Notes under the pieces: model-generated | Databases searched by the model: none | Seen by the model: only the letters and a program-made list of their open reading frames with translations | What the model was told of the DNA's origin: nothing | Position numbers and translations under genes: made by a program | Shown here: positions 9,928 through 36,407 of the stretch, one piece after another | Layout of the letters: each line of letters opens with the position of its first letter | Position numbering within the stretch: position 1 is the first letter of the stretch | DNA from: a virus | Lineage: Duplodnaviria > Heunggongvirae > Uroviricota > Caudoviricetes | Strand: one strand, 5' to 3' | Length of the DNA: 54,063 nt | Virus record (IMG/VR): IMGVR_UViG_2861048470_000002

Positions 9928-12397
<2,470 letters not shown>

Positions 12398-13095: not shown

Positions 13096-13797
13096 ATGAA
13101 AAACATCGCCGCACAGATGGTTAACTTTGACCGTGAGCAGATGCGTCGGATCGCCAACAACATGCCGGAACAGTACGACGAAAAGCCACAGGTACAGCAG
13201 GTAGCGCAGATCATCAACGGTGTGTTCAGCCAGTTACTGGCAACTTTCCCGGCGAGTCTGGCTAACCGTGACCAGAACGAACTGAACGAAATCCGCCGCC
13301 AGTGGGTTCTGGCTTTCCGGGAAAACGGGATCACCACAATGGAACAGGTTAACGCAGGAATGCGCGTAGCCCGTCGGCAGAACCGACCATTCCTGCCATC
13401 ACCCGGGCAGTTTGTTGCATGGTGCCGGGAAGAAGCATCCGTTATCGCCGGACTGCCAAACGTCAGCGAGCTGGTTGATATGGTTTACGAGTATTGCCGG
13501 AAGCGAGGCCTGTATCCGGATGCGGAGTCTTATCCGTGGAAATCAAACGCGCACTACTGGCTGGTTACCAACCTGTATCAGAACATGCGGGCCAATGCGC
13601 TTACTGATGCGGAATTACGCCGTAAGGCCGCAGATGAGCTTGTCCATATGACTGCGAGAATTAACCGTGGTGAGGCGATCCCTGAACCAGTAAAACAACT
13701 TCCTGTCATGGGCGGTAGACCTCTAAATCGTGCACAGGCTCTGGCGAAGATCGCAGAAATTAAAGCTAAGTTCGGACTGAAAGGAGCAAGTGTATGA
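13096..13797 (+). CDS. P: Lambda P, DnaB helicase loader, 233 aa
   Basis: MKNIAAQMVNFDREQMRRIANNMPEQYDEKPQVQQVAQIINGVFSQLLATFPASLANRDQNELNEIRRQW is lambda P. Confidence 0.96.
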   Translation: MKNIAAQMVNFDREQMRRIANNMPEQYDEKPQVQQVAQIINGVFSQLLATFPASLANRDQNELNEIRRQWVLAFRENGITTMEQVNAGMRVARRQNRPFLPSPGQFVAWCREEASVIAGLPNVSELVDMVYEYCRKRGLYPDAESYPWKSNAHYWLVTNLYQNMRANALTDAELRRKAADELVHMTARINRGEAIPEPVKQLPVMGGRPLNRAQALAKIAEIKAKFGLKGASV

Positions 13798-13967
13798 TGG
13801 GCAAAGAGGCAATTATTCATTACCTGGGGACGCACAAGAGCTTCTGTGCGCCGGACGTTGCTGCGACAACAGGTGTGACATTAACCAGCATAAATCAGGC
13901 TGCGGCAAAAATGGCGCGGGCAGGAATCCTGGTCATTGATGGTAAGGTCTGGCGAACGTTTGTTTAA
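13794..13967 (+). pseudogene. ren: Truncated ren, 57 codons versus about 96 in lambda
   Basis: MMGKEAIIHYLGTHKSFCAPDVAATTGVTLTSINQAAAKMARAGILVIDGKVWRTFV then stop; homology to lambda Ren ends where the low-GC island begins. Confidence 0.75.
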
Positions 13968-14113
13968 CGGTTAGCTACTCAGGATGATAGGGCGGGGCAA
14001 GTGAGTATGAAGCGGATTTTCAGGAATGCCATCAGAGTTTGGAAATAAAGTGGGTTTTCTAGTGGCAAGAGACTTGATAATATTTAGTTCTTTGAATCCA
14101 AGGAGATAGGGTT

Positions 14114-14608
14114 ATGAGAAAATTTATTTTAGCCTTTGTTATAAGTGCCTCGTTTACAGCAAATGCTGGTGTAGAGAAGTTAGGGCCGTGGATAACAAAG
14201 TCTGAGATAAATAAAATGACTGACCAGACTGACTTTGTGGCCCTTAATTTATCACCAGATTCATATAACAAAGCAGGTACTGATCGTGCAACTTCACTGG
14301 TGTTGCGTTGTAGTGATAACAAAACAGATGCCTATTTATCATTCAATGATTATATGGGTTCGGACAACCCAAGAATTACAGTGCGGTTAGATGGCGGAAA
14401 GCCGGTCAAGAGTGTTTGGGGAGGTGGGGAAGGCGGTGATTCTGCATTTGCTCCACAACCAATACAATTTATAAAGACCTTGGCTAAGCATAAAAAAGCT
14501 ATTTTTGGGTTTGAACCTTATGGATCAACTATGCAAGTAGTTGAGTTTGACTTGTCTGAGATTGATAAGGTTGTGGAAAAAATTTCACAGTCTTGCAATT
14601 GGAAATGA
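14114..14608 (+). CDS. Hypothetical secreted/periplasmic protein with a cleavable signal peptide, 164 aa
   Basis: MRKFILAFVISASFTANA signal then a mature domain with two Cys; AGGAGA-like RBS (GGAGATAGGG) upstream; no family recognised. Confidence 0.7.
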   Translation: MRKFILAFVISASFTANAGVEKLGPWITKSEINKMTDQTDFVALNLSPDSYNKAGTDRATSLVLRCSDNKTDAYLSFNDYMGSDNPRITVRLDGGKPVKSVWGGGEGGDSAFAPQPIQFIKTLAKHKKAIFGFEPYGSTMQVVEFDLSEIDKVVEKISQSCNWK

Positions 14609-14625
14609 CAAAAAAATTTCATATG

Positions 14626-14650
14626 AACCCAGTTTGCGCTGGGTTTTTTA
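14626..14650 (+). terminator. Rho-independent terminator (ACCCAG TTTGCG CTGGGT then TTTTTT) after the 164-aa gene
   Basis: Perfect stem plus T-run 18 nt after the stop codon. Confidence 0.8.
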
Positions 14651-15237
14651 TTTCAGTAGCCAATAATGCATTCAAAATCTCTTACTTGAGAAACGGCCTA
14701 TTTGAGATTTCAGTCGTGGCAGGATGATCAGTTGATTCGAGTATTGACGCATTTGCGTTCGGAGCGATTACAGTAGATTGTAAATAATAATGAGAAACAC
14801 ATAGCCACCCCGTGGTATTGAAACCATATAATGTTGGATTTGAAAACAGATCTTTTCCCATGTATTAATAACTACATCCCCGCGAGTGATTCAAAAAGGA
14901 GGGCCCAATTTTGTCCGAGTTTTTGTATTCCCCCGCATGCCGCTGCGGAGCACTACATCTGAGTGTCTGACTAGGGGATAAAATTAGACTGGATAGTGAG
15001 AAGAAAGTGGCGCGCTAGGCTGTGCCGAGTGCTACCAGTACACCTTGGGGGTGTGCAGCTTTCGCCGAGACTGTAGTGGGTATCGGTTAATGCACGAAAA
15101 ACCGAGAGGTCAGACAACCAATTTGCCGTAGGATTGTTTCCGGTGCGATACCGGTCTACTAACTGAAAGCAATGCGAAAAAGCATAAACTCGGTCCTTCA
15201 GTCGCCCTACACACTATTTACTAAGAAGGGCTGAAGC

Positions 15238-15437
15238 ATGGATACAATTATTACATGGATGGGAGATCGTCTGTTGGGGGGACACAAAAATCCGATCTGC
15301 GGCAGATGGCGATCACTGGATTAACTTCCGCGATTTGTTCAACAATTTTGTACACTGAAAAATTAAAACATGGTGAGCCTATTAACCCAAACGAAGAAGA
15401 AAAACTTTATAGGCTTTGGTATGAAGGAAACGCTTGA
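15238..15437 (+). pseudogene. Small ORF (about 66 codons if restored) frameshifted at a G6 homopolymer (15283-15288)
   Basis: ATG at 15238 preceded by GAAGGG; that frame stops after 28 codons; inserting one G in the G6 tract joins it to the 15255-15437 frame. Confidence 0.3.
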
Positions 15438-15926
15438 AAGAATAAAGCACAATTAAAACCTTTGATTTGCGATAATCAACTTGCCATAATTAAGTAATCG
15501 GAGTCTGAACAACTCCGGTGACTTCTGCGCTAAACGGGGACGTTTATGCGCACATACAATCCAAACTATCTTCTCCTTTCACAGATGCAGAAATGCACCT
15601 GCAATTCTTTGCATCTAGCGTTTGACCTCTGCGGAGGTGAAGCGTGAACCTCCCACAAGACGGCATCAAATTACATCGCGGCAACTTCACCGCTATCGGC
15701 CAGCAGATCCAGCCTTATCTGGAGGAAGGCAAATGCTTTCGCATGGTGCTTAAACCGTGGTGCGAGAGACGCAGTCTTTCCCAGAATGCACTCAGCCACA
15801 TGTGGTACAGCGAAATCAGTGAATACCTCATCAGCAGGGGTAAAACGTTCGCCACTCCAGCTTGGGTAAAAGATGCTCTCAAACACACATATCTCGGTAA
15901 GCGTCAACGGAGCACCGTATTGACGC

Positions 15927-17540
15927 TTATTTATTGGTGAGTACTACGTTCCATGGCAGGAGTTCGTCAACACGGTTGGAGGGCCATTCCGGCAGTACGC
16001 TCAGAATATGGCGCAGATACGCTTCCGGATCGATACCGTTCAGTCGGCAGGTGCCGATCAGCCCGTACAGCAGTGCTCCACGCTCGCCGCCGTGATCGCT
16101 ACCGAAGAACACGTAATTTTTCTTTCCGAGACAGACTGCACGAAGCGCTCTTTCCGCTGTGTTATTGTCCACCTCCGCCAGACCGTCATCACTGTAATAA
16201 CAGAGGGCGTCCCACTGATTCAGTACATAGCTGAACGCTTCGCCCAGTCTGGATTTTTTCGACAGCGTGCCATTCTTCTCCACCATCCATTCATGCAGCG
16301 ACGTCAGTAACGCTTTGCTTCGCTGCTGCCTGGCTGCAAGACGCTCTGACTCTGGTAATCCCCGTATTTCATTCTCGATGGCGTACAGTTCACTGATTCG
16401 CTTCAGGGCTTCTTCTGCCGTCGCACTTTTGCTGCTGATGTATACATCGTGGATTTTTCTCCGGGCATGAGCCCAGCACGCAACTTCTGTCAGCGCACTA
16501 CCTTCACGTTCTGCACTGAACAGCCTGTCATAACCTGTGAACGCATCCGCCTGCAGGATACCCCGGAAGGGGCGGAGGTGTTGCTCCGGGTGTTTCCCCT
16601 GCCGGTTCGATGAGTACGCGAACCAGACCGCCGGAGGAGATGACGAACCCGCATTGCGATCATCCCGGACATACGTCCAGATGCGCCCTGTTTTCGTCTT
16701 TTTCAGGCCCGGTGCCAGTACCTTTACCGGTGTGTCGTCAGTGTGAAGCTTGCGGGTATTCATCACATAACGGTACAGGGCATCATTCAGCGGCGTCATT
16801 AACTGGCAGCACGCGTCAACCCAGTTGGAGAGTAATGCACGGCTCAGTTCGACACCCTGTCGGGCAAAGATTTCACTCTGACGATACAGTGGCAGGTGTT
16901 CGCAGTATTTTCCCGTTAACACGCGGGCAAGTAATCCGGGGCCCGCGATACCACGCTCTATCGGGCGGGACGGCGCCGGTGCTTCAACGATGCAGTCACA
17001 TTTTGTACAGGCTTTTTTTACCCGTTCTGTGCGGATCACTTTCAGGGCGCTGCTCACCAGTTCCAGTTGTTCTGCGCTGACTTCCCCCAGATAATCCAGC
17101 TCACCGCCACACTCCGGGCAACAGCTTTCTTCAGGCTCCAGGCGGTATATTTCACGGGGGAGATGTGCCGGTAACGGACGACGATGGCGCGACTGTCGCA
17201 ACTGGCGGGGAACCAGTGGGTCATCCTCACGCCCACTGTAACGATCGCTTTCCTGCTCGCGTTGTTTCAGCAGGGCTTCAGCCTGTTCAACCTCACGACG
17301 CAGTTTTTCAGAACGGGTTCCGAACAGCATCCGGCGCAGTTTTTCTATCTGAGCCCGCAGATGCTCTATTTCTCGCTCATCTTCTTCGATCTTTTCTTCG
17401 GCACGTGCCAGTGCAGAGCGCAGGAAGGCCTCCGTCTCTTCAACCAGACTCAGTTGCTGGTCTTTCTGACGGAGGGCTTCAGCCTGCTCAGAGAGCAGCC
17501 TTTCCAGCTCAGCGATGCGAATGAGGTATTTCTGACTCAT
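15927..17540 (-). CDS. IS66-family transposase TnpC, 537 aa
   Basis: Coiled-coil N-terminus, CxxC...CxxC zinc motif, and conserved core typical of IS66 TnpC. Confidence 0.9.
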   Translation of the reverse strand: MSQKYLIRIAELERLLSEQAEALRQKDQQLSLVEETEAFLRSALARAEEKIEEDEREIEHLRAQIEKLRRMLFGTRSEKLRREVEQAEALLKQREQESDRYSGREDDPLVPRQLRQSRHRRPLPAHLPREIYRLEPEESCCPECGGELDYLGEVSAEQLELVSSALKVIRTERVKKACTKCDCIVEAPAPSRPIERGIAGPGLLARVLTGKYCEHLPLYRQSEIFARQGVELSRALLSNWVDACCQLMTPLNDALYRYVMNTRKLHTDDTPVKVLAPGLKKTKTGRIWTYVRDDRNAGSSSPPAVWFAYSSNRQGKHPEQHLRPFRGILQADAFTGYDRLFSAEREGSALTEVACWAHARRKIHDVYISSKSATAEEALKRISELYAIENEIRGLPESERLAARQQRSKALLTSLHEWMVEKNGTLSKKSRLGEAFSYVLNQWDALCYYSDDGLAEVDNNTAERALRAVCLGKKNYVFFGSDHGGERGALLYGLIGTCRLNGIDPEAYLRHILSVLPEWPSNRVDELLPWNVVLTNK

Positions 17541-17570
17541 GGCCGTTTTTATAATCCGGCCCGGCGTTTT

Positions 17571-17921
17571 TTACAACATTGTCAGTGCGTTAAGGCGGGA
17601 TGTTTTTGGCTGACGCCAGTCCAGCTTATCGAGGAGCATTGCCAGTTGCGAGCGGGTAATGGATATCTTACCGTCACGCACCGCAGGCCAGATAAACTGA
17701 CCTTCCTCAAGGCGTTTGGTGAACAGGCACAGACCATCAGCATCAGCCCACAGGATTTTAATCGTGTCTCCCCGTCGGCCACGGAAGATAAACAGGTGAC
17801 CGGAGAAGGGGTTATCATCCAGCACATGCTGTATCTGCTCCCCCAGACCGTTGAAGGATTTACGCATATCAGTAACGCCGGCAACGAGCCAGATACGGGT
17901 ACCTGATGGGAGTGAAATCAT
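17571..17921 (-). CDS. IS66-family Orf2 (TnpB), 116 aa
   Basis: MISLPSGTRIWLVAGVTDMRKSFNGL, the conserved IS66 Orf2 family. Confidence 0.9.
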   Translation of the reverse strand: MISLPSGTRIWLVAGVTDMRKSFNGLGEQIQHVLDDNPFSGHLFIFRGRRGDTIKILWADADGLCLFTKRLEEGQFIWPAVRDGKISITRSQLAMLLDKLDWRQPKTSRLNALTML

Positions 17922-18355
17922 CGTCCCCTCCCGGTCAGCTCACGGATCAACACCGTGAGCAGCTCTGGTGAAGGATTTTCCAGCATCATTTTACCGTAAT
18001 GGAATTCCACATGGCAGGAAGCTGCACAAGCAACTGATAATGCCTCCGGAGCAGGAGCATCTGTAGCACAGCGCGGGGGGTCGATAAGTTCCACTGGAAC
18101 CAGAGTCGGAGAGGCCGGAAAAGATTGTGATACTGTAGGGCCTACAATAGTTGGAGGCATTCTACGAGAAATACGTCCTTCTCTTTGCCAGAGGCGTAGC
18201 CATTTAAAAATCAGGTTGTTATCAACGCCATGTTCCCGGGCCAGTTGTGCAACATTGGCATTTGGTTTCGAAGCCAGTTCAACCATATGAAGTTTAAATT
18301 CATTAGAAAATATCCGGCGGGTTCCGGAGCGCCAGTCTGTAGGTTTATCCATCAA
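17918..18355 (-). CDS. IS66-family Orf1 (TnpA), 145 aa
   Basis: HTH-like N-terminal region; first gene of the IS66 three-gene set. Confidence 0.85.
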   Translation of the reverse strand: MMDKPTDWRSGTRRIFSNEFKLHMVELASKPNANVAQLAREHGVDNNLIFKWLRLWQREGRISRRMPPTIVGPTVSQSFPASPTLVPVELIDPPRCATDAPAPEALSVACAASCHVEFHYGKMMLENPSPELLTVLIRELTGRGR

Positions 18356-20254: not shown

Positions 20255-21337
20255 TTAGAACTGGTAAACCATACCTACAGCAACGATATCATCGGTAGCA
20301 ACGCCAGATGCTTTCGTGAAATCGCTCTTATCAATCAGGTTGATTTTGTAGTCAACAAAAGTGGACATATTTTTGTTGAAGTAATAGGTTGCACCTACAT
20401 CAACATATTCAACCAGGTCCTGATCACCCCAAACACCCAAGTCTTTTCCTTTAGAATGCAGGTAAGCAACGGATGGACGCAGGCCGAAGTCGAACTGATA
20501 TTGTGCAACAGCTTCGAAGTTTTGTGCTTTGTTGGCAATATGGTTATTACCAAAAACAGTCATGTTCTGGGTTTCAGAATAGGTGGTAGCCAGATAGATG
20601 TTGTTCGCATCATATTTCAGACCAGCTGCCCATACTTCAGCATTTTGACCAGATGCATTCAGGCTGTTGTTACCGTAGATAACCTGATTATTAGTGCGGT
20701 CAGATTTAGCATAGGTTACACCTACACCGAATCCTTCATACTCATAAGTAGTGGAGAAACCGAAACCATCACCATTAGCTTCAGTTACGTCAGTGCGGTC
20801 ATTTTTACCCTGATACTGAGCAGCAAAGTTCAGACCATCAACCAGACCAAAGAAGTCATTGTTACGATAAGTTGCAACACCTGTGGTGCGACCAGTCATG
20901 AATACATCTGTTTGGGTCCAGGTATCGCCACCGAATTCTGGCAGAACGTCGGTCCATGCACCAATATCGTATGCTACACCGTAGTTACGGCCATAATCGA
21001 TGGAGCCGTAGTCACCGAATTTCAGGCCAGCGAAGGCAAGACGGGTTTTATCTTTGGAGGAACCTTGAGATTCAGCGCGGTTGCCTTTGAATTCATATTC
21101 CCACTGACCGAAACCAGTCAGTTGATCGTTGATTTGGGTTTCACCTTTGAAGCCAAGACGGGCATAAGTAGTATCACCATCATCTGCATCATTAGAGGAG
21201 AAGTAGTGCTTAGCATTAACTTTCCCGTACAGATCCAGCTTGTTACTGTCTTTATTATAAATTTCAGCTGCCTGAGCAGACATCGCCATCAGTACTGATG
21301 CAGCTACAGCAGAAATTGCCACTGTTAATTTTTTCAT
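20255..21337 (-). CDS. nmpC: Outer-membrane porin (OmpC/PhoE family; NmpC/OmpD-like), 360 aa, intact
   Basis: Signal peptide [23 protein letters not shown], porin body, C-terminal ...VAVGMVYQF; opposite strand between Q and the lysis genes. Confidence 0.93.
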
Positions 21338-21622
21338 CGTGAGCCCTTTTTTTGAACTATTATTAAAAAATGATGTCACTGCGCGATAAATATTCATCTA
21401 ATCAATGTGATTATTTCAAGATGTAAGTTTTGGTTTCTCATTTGATTTGTGAAGTAGATCTCTATTTTTATCTGAACTTTTTCTATCGAATCCTATTCAT
21501 GGCTCTTGGCTGAATAAAAATAAATCTATTAGCCAATTTATATTAATGGCTGTTATTTATAAGTGCTCTATAATTTGAAGATTCAATTTAAACCAGCTAA
21601 AAATAACGCTGGAAATTATTTG

Positions 21623-23864: not shown

Positions 23865-25436
23865 TTACTGAGAGCTCAGATCAACTTTCCAGGGCAACAG
23901 ATCGCGTACCCGGTTTGCCGGCCAGTCCTGGATATGTTCAATGACGTAACGCAGCCACTTTTCTGGCTCCACATTGTTCAGACGGCATGTGCCGATCAGC
24001 GAGTACAACACCGCCGCATGTTCACCACCGCTGTCGGAACCCGCGAACATCCAGTTTTTCCGGCCTACGGCCACTCCCCGTAAGGCGTTCTCTGCGATGT
24101 TGTTGTCGATTTCCACCCAGCCATTACTGCAGTACACGTTCAGTGCATCCCACTGTTTCAGCAGGTATGCGAACGCTTTTGCCGTATCTGAGTGACGCGA
24201 CAGTGTTTTCATCTGTTGCTGTATCCAGTCATACAGTGACTGCATCAGTGGCGCGGCTCTGGCTTTTCTTGCCGCCAGACGCTGTTCTGCTGAACAGCCC
24301 CGGACCTCTGCCTCGATGGCATACAGTTCACCGATACGCTGCAGGGCTTCCGTGGTGATGTAGGTGGGCGCTCTTGCATGCACATCGTGGATTTTTCTCC
24401 GGGCATGAGCCATACACGCGGCTTCCGTTATTCTGCCGGATTCGTATAACGCCCGGTAACCACCGTAAGCATCGGCCTGAAGCACACCGCTGTAACCGGC
24501 CAGGTGATTTTGTGGATGGATACCTTTCCGGTCCGGACTGTACGCGAACCAGACCGCCGGGGGCATCTGTGAACCGGCGTTACGGTCATCACGGACGTAG
24601 ACCCACAGCCGGGCTGTCCGGGTTTTACCGCTGCCCGGCTCCTGGACCGGGACGGGGATATCATCAGCATGGACTTTACCGGGCATCAGCACATACTGGC
24701 GCAGGACGTCATACAGCGGCTCCAGCAGTTCAGCAACAGCACCTGTCCAGCGCCCCAGTGTGGCACGGCTCAGCTCCACTCCCTGACGACGGTATATTTC
24801 TGACTGGCGGTATAACGGCAGATGGTCTGCATATTTCCCGGTGACAACATGGGCCAGAAGCCCCGCTCCGGCATAACTGCGTGCAATGGGTTTTGAAGGT
24901 ACTGGTGCCTGCACGATATGGTCGCACCGGCAACAGGCCTGTTTCGGACGTTGTGTTTCGATAACCTTAAAGGCGCTGCTGATAAGCTCCAGTTGCTCTG
25001 ACACATCACATCCCAGAGAACTGAGTTCACCACCACAGGCAGGACAGCATTCCTCTTCCGGCCGGATAACCCGGGTTTCACGGGGAAGTGAGGCCGGTAA
25101 CGGTTTACGGGCTGAAGACTGGCGCAGGGCGGATGGCAGTACCGGGTCATATTGCTCACCCAGCGTTTCCGCCATTTCTTCCTGAAGTGCGCTGATTCGC
25201 TCCTGTGCTTCCTGTATCTGCCGTTCGGTTTTTGCACGAAGTTTTTCTGAGCTTTTACCGAACTGCATACGTTGCAGTTTCGCAACCAGCGCCTTCAGCC
25301 GGTTGATTTCGGAAGCATAAGCCGCCACCCGCTGTGAGAGCAGGCGGTTGTATTCAGCCATCTGGCGGATGGTGTCCTGTTGCGTCTGCAACAGTGCCCG
25401 CAGGCGGGCGTTCTCATGAGCAAGTGAGGTGTCCAT
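23865..25436 (-). CDS. IS66-family transposase TnpC, 523 aa
   Basis: Homologous in layout and motifs to the other two TnpC copies but clearly a distinct sequence. Confidence 0.9.
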
Positions 25437-27336: not shown

Positions 27337-28875
27337 ATGAACGACATCTCTTCTGACGACATCTTCCTGCTGAAACAGCGCCTGGCCGAACAGGAAGCGC
27401 TGATCCACGCCCTGCAGGAAAAGCTGAGCAACCGGGAGCGCGAAATAGACCATCTGCAGGCGCAGCTGGATAAACTCCGCCGGATGAACTTCGGCAGTCG
27501 TTCCGAAAAAGTCTCCCGCCGTATCGCACAAATGGAAGCCGATCTGAACCGGCTTCAGAAAGAGAGCGATACGCTGACTGGTAGGGTGTATGACCCGGCT
27601 GTACAGCGTCCGTTGCGTCAGACCCGCACCCGTAAGCCGTTCCCTGAATCACTACCCCGTGACGAAAAGCGACTGTTGCCTGCGGCGCCGTGCTGCCCGA
27701 ACTGCGGCGGTTCACTGAGCTATCTGGGCGAGGATACCGCCGAACAGCTGGAGTTGATGCGTAGTGCCTTCCGGGTTATCCGGACGGTACGGGAAAAACA
27801 TGCCTGTACTCAGTGCGATGCCATCGTGCAGGCACCTGCACCTTCGCGGCCCATCGAGCGGGGTATCGCCGGACCGGGGCTGCTGGCCCGCGTGCTGACC
27901 TCGAAGTATGCAGAGCACACCCCGCTGTATCGCCAGTCAGAAATATACGGCCGGCAAGGTGTGGAGCTGAGCCGTTCACTGCTGTCGGGCTGGGTGGATG
28001 CATGCTGCCGGCTGCTGTCTCCGCTGGAAGAGGCGCTTCATGGCTATGTCATGACTGACGGCAAACTCCATGCCGATGATACCCCGGTCCAGGTACTGCT
28101 GCCGGGTAATAAGAAGACGAAGACCGGGCGGTTGTGGGCGTATGTTCGTGATGACCGCAATGCCGGGTCAGCGTTGGCACCTGCAGTGTGGTTCGCTTAC
28201 AGCCCGGACAGAAAAGGCATCCATCCGCAGACTCATCTTGCCTGCTTCAGCGGTGTGCTGCAAGCGGATGCGTACGCCGGGTTCAACGAGCTGTATCGCA
28301 ATGGTGGGATAACGGAAGCTGCCTGCTGGGCTCATGCCCGCCGAAAGATCCACGATGTGCACGTCCGCATCCCGTCAGCACTGACGGAAGAAGCCCTGGA
28401 GCAGATCGGTCAGTTGTACGCCATAGAGGCGGATATAAGGGGAATGCCGGCAGAGCAGCGGCTTGCTGAACGTCAGCGAAAAACGAAACCGCTGTTGAAA
28501 TCCCTGGAAAGCTGGTTGCGTGAAAAGATGAAAACCCTGTCGCGACACTCAGAACTGGCGAAAGCGTTCGCATACGCCCTGAACCAGTGGCCGGCGCTGA
28601 CGTACTATGCAGATGATGGCTGGGCTGAGGCGGACAATAACATCGCTGAAAATGCGTTGCGGATGGTCAGTCTGGGCCGCAAAAACTACCTGTTCTTCGG
28701 TTCGGATCATGGAGGAGAGCGGGGAGCGCTGCTGTACAGCCTGATCGGGACGTGCAAACTGAACGGAGTGGAGCCAGAAAGCTACCTCCGCTATGTCCTT
28801 GACGTCATAGCCGACTGGTCGATAAACCGGGTCGGCGAACTGCTCCCCTGGCGCGTAGCACTGCCGACTGAATAA
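27337..28875 (+). CDS. IS66-family transposase TnpC, 512 aa
   Basis: Coiled-coil N-terminus, zinc motif CPNCGG...CTQCD, conserved core. Confidence 0.9.
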
Positions 28876-34765: not shown

Positions 34766-36065
34766 TCTCCCGCATATTGCCAGCATGGCCTTTAATGAGC
34801 CGCTGATGCTTGAACCCGCCTATGCGCGGGTTTTCTTTTGTGCGCTTGCAGGCCAGCTTGGGATCAGCCGCCTGACGGATGCGGTGTCCGGCGACAGCCT
34901 GACTGCCCAGGAGGCACTCGCGACGCTGGCATTATCCGGTGATGATGACGGACCACGACAGGCCCGCAGTTATCAGGTCATGAACGGCATCGCCGTGCTG
35001 CCGGTGTCCGGCACGCTGGTCAGCCGGACGCGGGCGCTGCAGCCGTACTCGGGGATGACCGGTTACAACGGCATTATCGCCCGTCTGCAACAGGCTGCCA
35101 GCGACCCGATGGTGGACGGCATTCTGCTCGATATGGACACGCCAGGCGGAATGGTGGCGGGGGCATTTGACTGCGCTGACATCATCGCCCGTGTGCGAGA
35201 CATAAAACCGGTATGGGCGCTGGCCAACGACATGAACTGCAGTGCAGGTCAGCTGCTTGCCAGTGCCGCCTCCCGGCGTCTGGTCACGCAGACCGCCCGG
35301 ACAGGCTCCATCGGCGTCATGATGGCTCACAGTAATTACGGTGCTGCCCTGGAGAAACAGGGTGTGGAAATCACGCTGATTTACAGCGGCAGCCATAAGG
35401 TGGATGGCAATCCCTACAGCCATCTTCCGGATGACGTCCGGGAGACACTGCAGTCCCGGATGGACGCAACCCGCCAGATGTTTGCGCAGAAGGTGTCGGC
35501 ATATACCGGCCTGTCTGTGCAGGCTGTGCTGGATACCGAGGCTGCAGTGTACAGCGGTCAGGAGGCCATTGATGCCGGACTGGCTGATGAACTTGTTAAC
35601 AGCACCGATGCGATCACCGTCATGCGTGATGCACTGGATGCGCGTAAATCCCGTCTCTCAGGAGGGCGAATGACCAAAGAGACTCAATCAACAACTGTTT
35701 CAGCCACTGCTTCGCAGACTGACGTTACTGACGTGGTGCCAGCGACGGAGGGCGAAAACGCCAGCGCGGCGCAGCCGGACGTGAACGCGCAGATCACCGC
35801 TGCGGTTGCGGCAGAAAACAGCCGCATTATGGGGATCCTCAACTGTGAGGAGGCTCACGGACGCGAAGAACAGGCCCGCGTGCTGGCAGAAACCCCCGGT
35901 ATGACCGTGGAAACGGCCCGCCGCATTCTGGCAGCTGCACCACAGAGTGCACAGGCGCGCAGTGACACTGCGCTGGATCGTCTGATGCAGGGGGCACCGG
36001 CACCGCTGGCTACAGGTAACCCGGCATCTGATGCCGTTAACGATTTGCTGAACACACCAGTGTAA
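34746..36065 (+). CDS. C: Capsid protease/scaffold C (with in-frame Nu3), 439 aa, GTG start
   Basis: VTAELRNLPHIASMAFNEPLMLEPAYARVFFCALAGQLGIS matches lambda C; 1320 nt as in lambda; the in-frame ATG at 34599 is upstream, inside B. Confidence 0.85.
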
Positions 36066-36074
36066 GGGATGTTT

Positions 36075-36407
36075 ATGACGAGCAAAGAAACCTTTACCCA
36101 TTACCAGCCGCTGGGCAACAGTGACCCGGCACATACGGCAACCGCGCCCGGCGGATTGAGTGCGAAAGCGCCTGCAATGACCCCGCTGATGCTGGACACC
36201 TCCACCCGTAAGCTGGTTGCGTGGGATGGCACCACCGACGGTACTGCCGTTGGCATTCTGGCGGTTGATGCTGACCAGACCAGCACCACGCTGACGTTCT
36301 ACAAGTCCGGCACGTTCCGTTATGAGGATGTGCTCTGGCCGGAGGCTGCCAGCGACGAGACGAAAAAACGGACCGCGTTTGCCGGAACGGCAATCAGCAT
36401 CGTTTAA
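36075..36407 (+). CDS. D: Capsid decoration protein D, 110 aa
   Basis: [43 protein letters not shown] is lambda D. Confidence 0.95.

Follow-up and report, generated by a model that had tools for sequence, protein, structure and literature searches.

Here we report that the interval between ren and ninB in the prophage carried by IMG/VR record IMGVR_UViG_2861048470_000002 (the window, a stretch of 54,063 nucleotides) contains a structured RNA that matches no Rfam family. Comparison of its sequence across lineages indicates that the RNA is non-coding and that compensatory changes have preserved its fold of many helices, two of them long-range, together with a pseudoknot. On balance, we consider it probable that the interval belongs to a defective lambdoid prophage, in which it forms an accessory region of mosaic make-up with one unusual component, an independent gene for this compactly folded RNA of approximately 330 nucleotides (nt). 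The coordinates of all features are collected in Table 1.

The GC content is 0.36–0.45 over approximately 13850–15650 and 0.50–0.57 on either side, so the low-GC island that the initial annotation placed between ren and ninB is real; within it, a GC-richer core reaches 0.51 at 14900–15200. The same annotation treated 14650–15640 as a single unit without an open reading frame (ORF) of 60 aa or more, and suggested that it holds a structured RNA or a regulatory element, or else decayed genes. The stretch is essentially ORF-free, although its longest ORF is exactly 60 aa (15255–15437, plus strand), followed by one of 59 aa (14682–14861, minus strand). Rather than one unit it is a mosaic, assembled from at least four pieces of differing history, namely the tail of an antirepressor gene, the structured RNA, a remnant of a gene that we call ORF118 and a region upstream of ninB of the phage 82 type that includes orf33. 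Structured RNA and decayed genes are thus both present, side by side.

Table 1 Features of the ren–ninB interval and its borders (positions in the window).
Feature	Position	Strand	Basis
ren pseudogene, near full length	13794–14062	+	Alignment to intact ren of phage Turner; PGAP
Gene for 164-aa secreted VasI/TagO-family protein	14114–14608	+	Pfam, PHROG, PGAP, homologues, fold
Intrinsic terminator of the TagO-like gene	14625–14655	+	9-bp stem followed by T-run
3′-end remnant of a P22AR C-terminal-domain (antirepressor-like) gene	14688–14766 (79 bp)	+	Similarity to annotated genes
Putative sigma-70-like promoter of the RNA	14840–14869	+	Fixed position in lineages
Structured non-coding RNA, new class	14876–15208	+	Covariation, no shared frame, no Rfam match
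RNA 5′ domain (P1–P3)	14876–14979	+	
Small ORF in the RNA 5′ domain, MSEFLYSPACRCGALHLSV	14911–14970	+	Read from alignments
Pseudoknot 5′ strand, GUCUGAC	14965–14971	+	Changes in lineage L091
RNA 3′ domain, closed by P4 and P7	14987–15203	+	
Long-range helix P4	14987–14992/15198–15203	+	RNAalifold
Long-range helix P7	15101–15106/15189–15194	+	RNAalifold
Pseudoknot 3′ strand, GUCAGAC, pairing with 14965–14971	15109–15115	+	Changes in lineage L091
Decayed remnant of ORF118 (118-aa ORF, phrog_12412)	15238–15437	+	Alignment with strains H10 and GB089; PHROG matches
Common lambdoid ninB-upstream module	15462–15647	+	89–93% identity to many lambdoid phages
Promoter-like site of the ninB-upstream module	15462–15490	+	Promoter scan; phage 82 record
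Inverted repeat of the ninB-upstream module	15499–15517	+	Phage 82 record
orf33	15546–15647	+	Phage 82 record X92588
ninB/ybcN, 5′ part, cut by IS66-family insertion	15644–15897	+	Departs from intact YbcN past ...HTYLG
IS66 transposase	15927–17540	−	

Rfam covariance models, run over the ORF-poor stretch as the initial annotation had proposed, assigned it to no known family. A cmscan of positions 13500–16200 against Rfam 15 gave no matches at E ≤ 1, and no match at E ≤ 5 overlapped the RNA in seven other lineages; the families covered include ROOL, GOLLD, HEARO, tmRNA, RNase P, riboswitches and ribozymes. ARAGORN found neither a tRNA nor a tmRNA at the RNA, and a tmRNA-like reading, suggested by a short ORF and a pseudoknot within approximately 350 nt, was rejected on this result and on the unpaired 5′ and 3′ ends. 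Searching the literature, both by topic and with sequence strings, returned nothing relevant, and the RNA sequence appears in no paper. The RNA is conserved in approximately 14 lineages of temperate phages of Escherichia coli and Klebsiella, including the isolated phages Turner and IdasGreatGrand, and copies from E. coli and Klebsiella phages are 79% identical with no ORF. We found the locus in approximately 52 IMG/VR contigs and 19 metagenome contigs, and as a single copy in 159 of 5,426 RefSeq E. coli genomes, none of which (0/159) annotates it. Scanning a genome collection with two conserved motifs yielded one true match (a mis-binned ‘Collinsella’ contig) and five chance matches, all 19 true matches of a three-motif metagenome scan came from lineages already known, and a viral scan with a 5′-domain motif added one divergent lineage, L091. 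The RNA was not found among PLSDB plasmids.

The evidence for the fold comes from covariation. The RNAalifold consensus comprises 89 nested pairs, 17 of which show compensatory changes, compared with 2–5 in controls in which the pairing partners had been slid along the alignment; 97.3% of cells are paired, compared with 33–46% after sliding. Cells changed on both sides number 71, compared with 5–10 in the slid controls, counts that imply more independent covariation events than there are because the number of lineages is small and recombination occurs between them. None of 500 shuffles reached the observed pairing or covariation values. Absence of conserved secondary structure had been named beforehand as an outcome that would speak against a structured element; what we find instead is covariation far above the controls. 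Almost none of it falls in the 5′-domain helices P1, P2, P2a and P2b, so that part of the fold is only predicted. The pseudoknot is supported by the divergent lineage L091, in which C–G becomes U–A and G–C becomes G–U within the candidate helix while the competing nested pair is broken; L091 also brings compensatory changes in P5b and P3. We did not use an all-against-all search of column covariation for further tertiary pairs, which was swamped by lineage correlation. In single-sequence folding of both strands the energy equalled that of shuffles (z approximately 0), and thermodynamic stability alone would therefore have missed the RNA.

The pattern of substitution also bears on whether the conserved object is RNA at all. 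A position at the boundary of module exchange would suit an element that works as DNA, for instance as a site of recombination, a signal for replication or an array of protein-binding sites, and phages of the H10 type have a serine recombinase gene, ybcK, approximately 0.5 kb upstream. However, most lineages are without ybcK, the putative promoter and the terminator frame the RNA exactly, and the long-range compensatory pairs, together with an 11% share of G–U pairs, indicate a single-stranded molecule of the plus strand; owing to 128 G–U cells, the share of all cells that are paired is 97.3% when the plus strand is read, compared with 86.3% for the minus strand. We regard a purely DNA-level role as hardly credible. 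Nor do we give appreciable weight to the idea that the stretch is only neutral spacer and gene remnants with no functional element. The flanks are indeed wreckage, ren being a pseudogene and the P22AR_C gene and ORF118 being reduced to a tail and a remnant, respectively, and the prophage is full of IS elements, but the core has neither protein homology nor a conserved frame, the substitutions in its helices are compensatory well beyond the slid controls, and conservation begins sharply at the promoter-like site and stops at the terminator.

No reading frame is open across the RNA in all lineages; each frame is stopped in some of them, and antisense frames, where open, shift from lineage to lineage. 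The ORFs that overlap the RNA match no Pfam family. The small ORF in the 5′ domain, in which AAGGAGG is followed after 8 nt by a UUG start and 19 codons, is probably incidental. Were it translated, the conserved 5′ domain might serve to encode a micropeptide of 12–19 aa (M-S/T-E/Q-F-L-Y/N-S-P-A-C...), in a dual-function or coding element. The strong Shine–Dalgarno sequence, the stop codon kept in every lineage and the near-universal retention of codons 1–10 among the lineages, where S>T, E>Q and Y>N are the sole changes, are what such a peptide would predict. Yet the variable sites are spread over codon positions 1, 2 and 3 as 5, 4 and 4, with no third-position bias, and all changes in the P3 region also preserve RNA pairing. 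Furthermore, the C terminus is frameshifted in L056 and L091 and prematurely stopped in at least six contigs, L056 is missing the Shine–Dalgarno sequence, and a micropeptide would leave the covarying 3′ domain unexplained. We thus judge a coding function to be very unlikely.

The pieces that surround the RNA have identifiable sources. Hundreds of E. coli genomes carry annotated P22AR_C genes, to whose ends the upstream remnant is 82–83% identical, and in strain H10 the neighbour is an intact 107-aa P22AR_C protein that matches Pfam PF10548. Downstream, ORF118 is intact in lineages L005, L041 and L055, and the remnant in the window has lost 138 bp by deletion and is frameshifted in a G6/G7 homopolymer at 15276–15281. 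The phage 82 record annotates putative −35/−10 elements, a regulator-binding repeat and orf33 in the module that follows. The right border lies where the initial annotation had put it, with ninB (ybcN) beginning at 15644; that ninB is interrupted by an IS66-family element, with the break at approximately 15898, had been overlooked. IS elements are abundant across the prophage. At the left border, ren does stop after 57 codons, but homology to ren runs on to approximately 14062, so foreign DNA begins near 14063 and not at 13968. The gene was not cut off by an insert: in the alignment with ren of phage Turner, its lesions are a TAC-to-TAA nonsense mutation at codon 58 and a 1-nt deletion, and PGAP labels it ‘protein ren, frameshifted; internal stop’ in identical genomes.

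The 164-aa protein encoded after ren had been left without a family. The profile and structure-prediction searches suggested for it gave both a family and a fold, and these models place it as a periplasmic protein of the VasI/TagO family with an IalB-like β fold. Its N terminus, MRKFILAFVISASFTANA, reads as the signal peptide that had been noted (residues 1–18). Residues 56–163 match Pfam VasI (PF11319) at E = 5 × 10^−6 and 26.7 bits, only 0.2 bits above the gathering cut-off of 26.5 bits; the match to phrog_1848 is stronger (E = 3 × 10^−70), PGAP names the protein TagO, and 22 of 30 homologues have a precomputed PF11319 assignment. PADLOC and NCBIfam searches of the protein gave no matches. 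The AF2 model (pLDDT 86.9) has as its best solved fold the β-rich Bartonella IalB structure (PDB 3dtd, TM approximately 0.6). The protein resembles VasI/TagO in its HMM score, signal peptide and size of approximately 165 aa, but differs in setting: this subfamily occupies prophage accessory slots of E. coli, Klebsiella and Salmonella outside a type VI secretion cluster, and no such cluster surrounds the gene here, which is flanked by ren and ninB. Homologues are found across Enterobacterales at 55–81% identity, the closest relatives are prophage accessory genes too, and those of Klebsiella and Salmonella sit between antirepressor-like and tape-measure genes of prophages. The moron label proposed for the gene agrees with its own terminator, the strong hairpin and T-run noted earlier, and with homologues in accessory slots, but we found no convincing promoter (none passed the scan in 14063–14113). 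Low GC and absence from lambda fit accessory status, and we regard the TagO-like gene as an ordinary accessory gene of the prophage, separate from the RNA; the pseudogenes are ordinary too.

The putative promoter of the RNA consists of TTGAAA, a 17/18-nt spacer and TATTAA/ATTAAT (also read as TTTAAT), 6–7 nt before the A at 14876. In 10 of 13 lineages the best −35/−10 match (9–10 of 12 positions) stops 6 nt short of the conserved 5′ A, and the spacer sequence varies. Because the −10 element is non-consensus, missing either A2 or T6, and a stricter promoter scan did not call the site, we infer this promoter and a start near 14876 from position and motif; in Klebsiella-type lineages the site is weak. 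Alternatively, the RNA could be cut from the PR transcript. Canonical terminators follow the RNA core in nine of the 13 lineages of our alignment (A2), and in the extra variants L076, L081, L083 and L091, approximately 10 nt past the 3′ strand of P4 and sharing no strand with the conserved helices. Downstream cargo begins approximately 25 nt after the terminator, leaving no space for a promoter, so its expression would depend entirely on read-through. The cargo falls into at least five unrelated types, among them a two-transmembrane (2-TM) protein, a HEPN-like protein with an Rx4H motif and ORF118, and one lineage, L049, carries the RNA without cargo. Pfam, NCBIfam and PADLOC searches of the cargo proteins gave no family, and their only matches are to PHROGs of unknown function.

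This arrangement invites a cis-acting reading, in which the RNA is a leader that serves as sensor or attenuator and controls read-through into variable, possibly toxic, cargo as a portable cassette for regulated expression of, for example, exclusion or defence genes. The RNA lies directly upstream of a same-strand gene in nearly all lineages, cargo expression must cross both RNA and terminator, and some cargo looks effector-like, such as the 2-TM and Rx4H proteins. Four lineages of the alignment have no working terminator (none in the E. coli type, L041 and L055, a degenerate one in L026); there the RNA would be a 5′ untranslated region, which fits a cis-acting role. Riboswitch and attenuator leaders are likewise conserved structured RNAs upstream of genes, followed by a terminator. 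In those leaders, however, the terminator competes with a conserved helix, and here it competes with none: because its stem shares no conserved strand, no alternative antiterminator pairing is evident. Moreover, no consistent functional class lies downstream, the cargo proteins show no relationship either among themselves or with known defence proteins (none by PADLOC), L049 has no cargo and, in the window, the cargo has decayed yet the RNA is intact. We consider a leader function possible but rather unlikely.

The same order of elements, promoter, RNA, terminator and small ORF, is that of ToxIN, and a type III toxin–antitoxin-like locus, in which an abundant terminated RNA neutralizes a protein made by occasional read-through, could look alike, with a non-coding RNA, an intrinsic terminator and a small ORF reached only by read-through. 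In contrast to the tandem 36-nt repeats of ToxIN, the prophage RNA is one complex fold: TRF found no arrays and there are no direct-repeat families, which ruled out a ToxI-like RNA. The same RNA stands beside several non-homologous cargo proteins, none of which matches ToxN/AbiQ or another Pfam or PADLOC family, and it persists without cargo in L049 and in the window. A toxin–antitoxin role is therefore most improbable.

Among known RNAs, the closest in kind are ROOL and GOLLD, which are also large multi-helix RNAs with long-range pairings, recognized by covariation and often encoded by stand-alone non-coding genes of temperate phages. Their covariance models do not match the RNA, which at approximately 335 nt is far smaller than either (approximately 580 and 800 nt, respectively) and which resides in the ren–ninB accessory slot of lambdoid phages of Enterobacteriaceae rather than beside tRNA genes in Firmicutes and lake metagenomes. 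Other lambdoid-prophage non-coding genes of E. coli, those for DicF, IpeX, AgvB/AsxR and the Pas small RNAs (sRNAs), have their own promoter and terminator and are absent from most strains, but encode short (less than approximately 120 nt) base-pairing RNAs, whereas the RNA described here has at least 15 helices, junction conservation and a pseudoknot. Lambda nut and HK022 put are RNA elements of the lambdoid early-right operon upstream of nin terminators, as is this RNA, whose size is several times theirs and which comes with a putative promoter and a terminator of its own; inspection revealed no boxA/boxB-type pair. The GCGAAAAAGC hairpin was considered as a nut/boxB element and rejected, having a hexaloop instead of the boxB pentaloop, no boxA and a loop that varies in L091. 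No ORF of reverse-transcriptase size and no reverse-transcriptase domain, as in retrons and DRT systems, lies beside the RNA in any lineage inspected.

Weighing these comparisons, we prefer a trans-acting RNA, discrete and folded, to a leader that acts in cis. Such an RNA would be transcribed from its own sigma-70-type promoter and, in most lineages, ended by the Rho-independent terminator just past its last helix, giving a discrete prophage RNA of approximately 360 nt. The slot just behind the terminator would exchange unrelated cargo genes, which may be reached by read-through from the RNA promoter or from N-antiterminated PR transcription; in the window, the ORF118 module may have taken the place of the terminator and then decayed, with the RNA still intact. 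By binding a protein or some other ligand, the fold might serve as scaffold or decoy for a factor of the host or the phage, a role that we offer as a guess of low certainty. A base-pairing sRNA role is less likely, because conservation clusters where a tertiary-looking fold has its junctions and loops, and no phage target was seen; complementarity of the RNA to the rest of the window was at chance level only. A more daring proposal, which we hold to be a long shot, is that the RNA forms the core of a new phage cassette, as a sensor or catalytic RNA that acts without an adjacent protein partner and responds to infection or induction, either gating interchangeable toxic effectors for exclusion or abortive infection or itself working, as decoy or ribozyme, against a host factor of defence or RNA processing.

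No temperate phages have been studied more intensively than the lambdoid phages of E. coli, yet the RNA of approximately 330 nt in their early-right operon, with its conserved, tertiary-looking fold, carries no annotation in 159 complete RefSeq genomes or in two coliphages isolated recently. Its location directly before a swap slot of small proteins suggests a testable tie to the expression of accessory or exclusion genes. Because the RNA is small, genetically tractable and part of a model system, it may offer a rare chance to learn the role of an orphan structured phage RNA, which is also the question posed by ROOL and GOLLD.

GC content drops to 0.36–0.45 across approximately 13850–15650, against 0.50–0.57 in the flanks, in agreement with the low-GC island of the initial annotation, and the profile further resolves a GC-richer core (0.51) at 14900–15200 inside this tract. 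The ORF reported at 14114–14608 (164 codons, N-terminus MRKFILAFVISASFTANA) and the terminator behind it (hairpin and T-run at 14625–14655) were found as described, and 14650–15640 is indeed ORF-poor, its longest ORFs being 60 aa on the + strand and 59 aa on the − strand. The truncation of ren is correct as to the stop after codon 57, but homology to intact ren runs on to approximately 14062; alignment with the intact gene revealed a TAC→TAA change plus a 1-nt deletion, and PGAP annotates a ren pseudogene over the same span in identical genomes. At the other border, ninB/ybcN starts at 15644 and is itself interrupted by an IS66-family element (approximately 15898–18355; transposase at 15927–17540 on the − strand, plus accessory ORFs), which splits it after ...HTYLG; ybcN is intact at the same position in related genomes. 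The prophage also holds two further IS66-family transposase genes (23865–25436 and 27337–28875), an IS21-family element (10537–12338; istA, 340 aa with an rve domain; istB, 260 aa, IstB_IS21) in the O replication gene, whose C-terminal part resumes at approximately 12377, and an OmpC/NmpC-type porin gene (20255–21397, − strand) that follows the Q antiterminator, an arrangement shared with prophage DLP12.

The "non-coding" 1-kb stretch is a mosaic of pieces (see table). One is the 3′ end of a P22AR C-terminal domain (P22AR_C) gene, which is intact (107 aa) at the same place in E. coli strain H10 and phage Turner, behind emrE and ybcK; another is the remnant of ORF118, a 118-aa ORF intact in H10 and in two lineages carrying the RNA described below (L041 and L055). 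At 15276–15281 the window has a G6 homopolymer where GB089-type E. coli strains have G7, which shifts the frame of the shortened remnant; judging by its sequence, the tract looks slippage-prone. A structured RNA, a regulatory element or a decayed gene set had been offered for 14650–15640, and structured RNA and decayed genes coexist there. The pseudogenes are ordinary. Overall, the observations of the initial annotation were largely right and its interpretation partly so, failing on ren and on the family of the 164-aa protein.

That protein, which had been left without a family, is placed by profile search in VasI (PF11319; 26.7 bits, barely over the curated cut-off of 26.5) and in phrog_1848 (end-to-end match, E=3e-70), and its PGAP annotation reads 'type VI secretion system-associated protein TagO'. 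Homologues of approximately 165 aa with 55–81% identity, the majority with PF11319, occur in Salmonella, Klebsiella, Enterobacter, Citrobacter, Pantoea and Serratia. A confident AlphaFold model (23 sequences; pLDDT 86.9, pTM 0.81) predicts a beta-rich domain behind a disordered signal peptide; among solved structures, the sole significant match is to Bartonella invasion-associated protein B (3dtd; E ~1e-4, TM ~0.6). The Klebsiella and Salmonella homologues that we looked up lie outside type VI secretion (T6SS) clusters; they are prophage genes flanked by KilA-N/Bro-N/P22AR_C antirepressor-like genes on one side and the tape-measure gene on the other, so the 164-aa protein represents an accessory subfamily, carried by phages, of a family that is known but poorly understood. 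The association with an antirepressor fragment is seen again in the window. A promoter scan found no convincing promoter belonging to the 164-aa gene itself, and this TagO-like gene is ordinary.

Coordinates of features in the window and in related contigs
Feature	Position	Remarks
P22AR_C gene, 3′ end	14688–14766	matches such genes in hundreds of E. coli genomes
Promoter-like site of the RNA	14840–14869	TTGAAA, 17/18 nt, TATTAA/ATTAAT
19-codon ORF	14911–14970	within RNA 5′ domain; strong Shine–Dalgarno AAGGAGG, 8 nt, UUG start
Helix P4	14987–14992/15198–15203	listed with the best-supported helices; one-sided changes alone
Helix P5	15003–15008/15058–15063	among best-supported
Helix P5a	15009–15014/15030–15036	among best-supported
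Helix P6	15064–15072/15079–15087	among best-supported; 6/9 pairs covary
Helix P7, long-range	15101–15106/15189–15194	among best-supported
Helix P9a	15131–15144/15150–15164	among best-supported
ORF118 remnant (phrog_12412)	15238–15437	138 bp lost, frameshift at G6/G7 run
ninB-upstream module, widespread	15462–15647	phage 82 record: putative promoter, regulator-binding repeat, orf33
Klebsiella-phage cargo, 183 aa	L004 4385–4936	RLRHNLLH (Rx4H) motif reminiscent of HEPN RNases; phrog_27260 only
TagO-like homologues, Klebsiella	L064/L065 8001–8504	prophage late region, just before tape-measure gene
TagO-like homologue, Salmonella	L066 6001–6495	prophage late region, just before tape-measure gene

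The segment at 14876–15208 shares 79% identity with non-coding sequence in Klebsiella phage Kp4856-1, the flanks being unrelated. Three motif scans of IMG/VR, a later additional scan and a scan of metagenomes yielded approximately 70 loci in approximately 14 distinct lineages, which are few and visibly recombinant. The copy in the window is 100% identical to those in many other strains, despite the heavily decayed prophage. Natural knock-outs occur among the IMG/VR contigs L037 (approximately 3372 onward) and L042; one has an IS21 istA inserted in the 3′ part of the RNA and another has its 5′ domain replaced.

RNAalifold on 13 aligned lineages gave 89 nested pairs, 17 with compensatory changes on both sides. 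In an explicit count over the alignment, 97.3% of 1150 cells are paired, against 33–46% with the 3′ partners slid by 1–3 columns; both-side changes affect 17 pairs (71 cells) versus 2–5 pairs (5–10 cells) in the slid controls, and none of 500 column shuffles matched the observed values. G–U pairs, at 11% of cells, give the + strand better pairing than the − strand (97.3% versus 86.3%). L091, a more divergent lineage, contributes three further compensatory pairs in P5b and another in P3; in a 7-bp pseudoknot (14965–14971/15109–15115) it changes C–G to U–A and G–C to G–U, and the nested pair that competes with this helix is broken. Helices P1, P2, P2a and P2b of the 5′ domain are putative and unproven, since they are nearly invariant. 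The folding energy of single sequences does not stand out.

No reading frame is open in all lineages across the RNA, open antisense frames are shifted between lineages by a 1-nt indel, and ORFs overlapping the RNA have no Pfam family. A minor rival reading, in which the 19-codon ORF is a coding element, draws on its Shine–Dalgarno sequence and its conserved N-terminal 10 codons (MSEFLYSPAC in most lineages), but the substitution pattern and the variable C-terminus, frameshifted in L056 and L091 and prematurely stopped in L015, L023, L024, L033, L067 and L084, give no sign of coding selection. Comparative sequence evidence shows a conserved, non-coding + strand fold with long-range helices and a pseudoknot, and as a fold the RNA is well supported.

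The Rfam scan advised for the ORF-poor stretch, run with Rfam 15 covariance models, gave no match in any of eight lineages, even at E≤1–5; ARAGORN found nothing on the RNA. Literature searches by topic and by sequence string retrieved no description, an anonymous listing being possible in a 2023 catalogue of >10,000 candidate structured RNAs from IMG/VR (PMC10690425). By sequence and structure, the RNA is a new class. Of 5426 complete E. coli genomes, 159 have it in single copy, all with 'none' as the underlying annotation; coliphages Turner and IdasGreatGrand carry it too, as do two Klebsiella phages. No copy was found in PLSDB plasmids or, save for one contig, in GTDB species representatives. 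This contig, almost certainly mis-binned (JAIJJM010000109.1, 'Collinsella sp.' MAG), has an E. coli-type phage segment that matches the window exactly across the RNA. The sole non-chromosomal E. coli copy lies at 36025–36359 of NZ_CP174001.1, a 43,337-bp 'plasmid' of strain SZQ1 that is probably a circular phage genome.

The A of ATCCCCGCGAG (14876) marks a sharp onset of conservation. Within the 75 nt upstream of it, the best sigma-70-type match in 10 of 13 lineages consists of TTGAA(A/T) and TTTAAT around a 17-nt spacer of freely variable sequence and ends 6 nt before this A. We infer a promoter at the promoter-like site of the window, at this strength because its −10 is imperfect and a stricter promoter scan made no call. 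A motif, AACCATAT(N)TTGT..., at 14820–14845 and at the equivalent place in contigs L040–L056, is conserved in most non-Klebsiella lineages; it adjoins the upstream side of, and overlaps, the −35 and could be an operator or UP-like element. A canonical intrinsic terminator, of which ACCGCCUCAUGGCGGUAUUUUUUUU is an example, follows P4 by approximately 10 nt in 9 of the 13 lineages and is also present in four extra variants (L076, L081, L083 and L091). That of L026 is degenerate only, and the E. coli type of the window, L041 and L055 have none, the RNA running directly into ORF118. Transcribed from its own promoter and ending at the adjacent terminator, the RNA would be a discrete molecule of approximately 360 nt.

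The cargo gene behind the RNA varies by lineage, its types including ORF118, a two-TM protein of approximately 180 aa, a protein of 183 aa that bears the HEPN-like motif RHNLLH (Rx4H), a 95-aa and 162-aa pair and a 177-aa protein; in L049 nothing lies between the RNA and the regular DUF1367 nin gene. Cargo proteins have no match in Pfam, NCBIfam or PADLOC and match solely PHROGs of unknown function. Where a terminator is present, the cargo start codon follows it by approximately 25 nt, which leaves no room for a promoter, so the cargo must be expressed by read-through. Promoterless cargo, together with the lineages devoid of a terminator, fits the main rival reading, a cis-acting leader gating read-through into the cargo; however, the terminator and the conserved helices have no strand in common, a point against a riboswitch-type switch, the cargo genes are unrelated, and in some cases the cargo is missing or decayed. 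Type III TA, retron, nut/put, tmRNA and DNA-site readings were rejected on the features tested. Genes upstream of the RNA also vary between lineages, so that the RNA acts like an autonomous unit bordering a swap slot. Because conservation is concentrated where a compact fold has its junctions and loops, and because no complementary target was seen within the phage, we tentatively favour a trans-acting ligand- or protein-binding RNA, which may serve as a scaffold or decoy, over a base-pairing sRNA.
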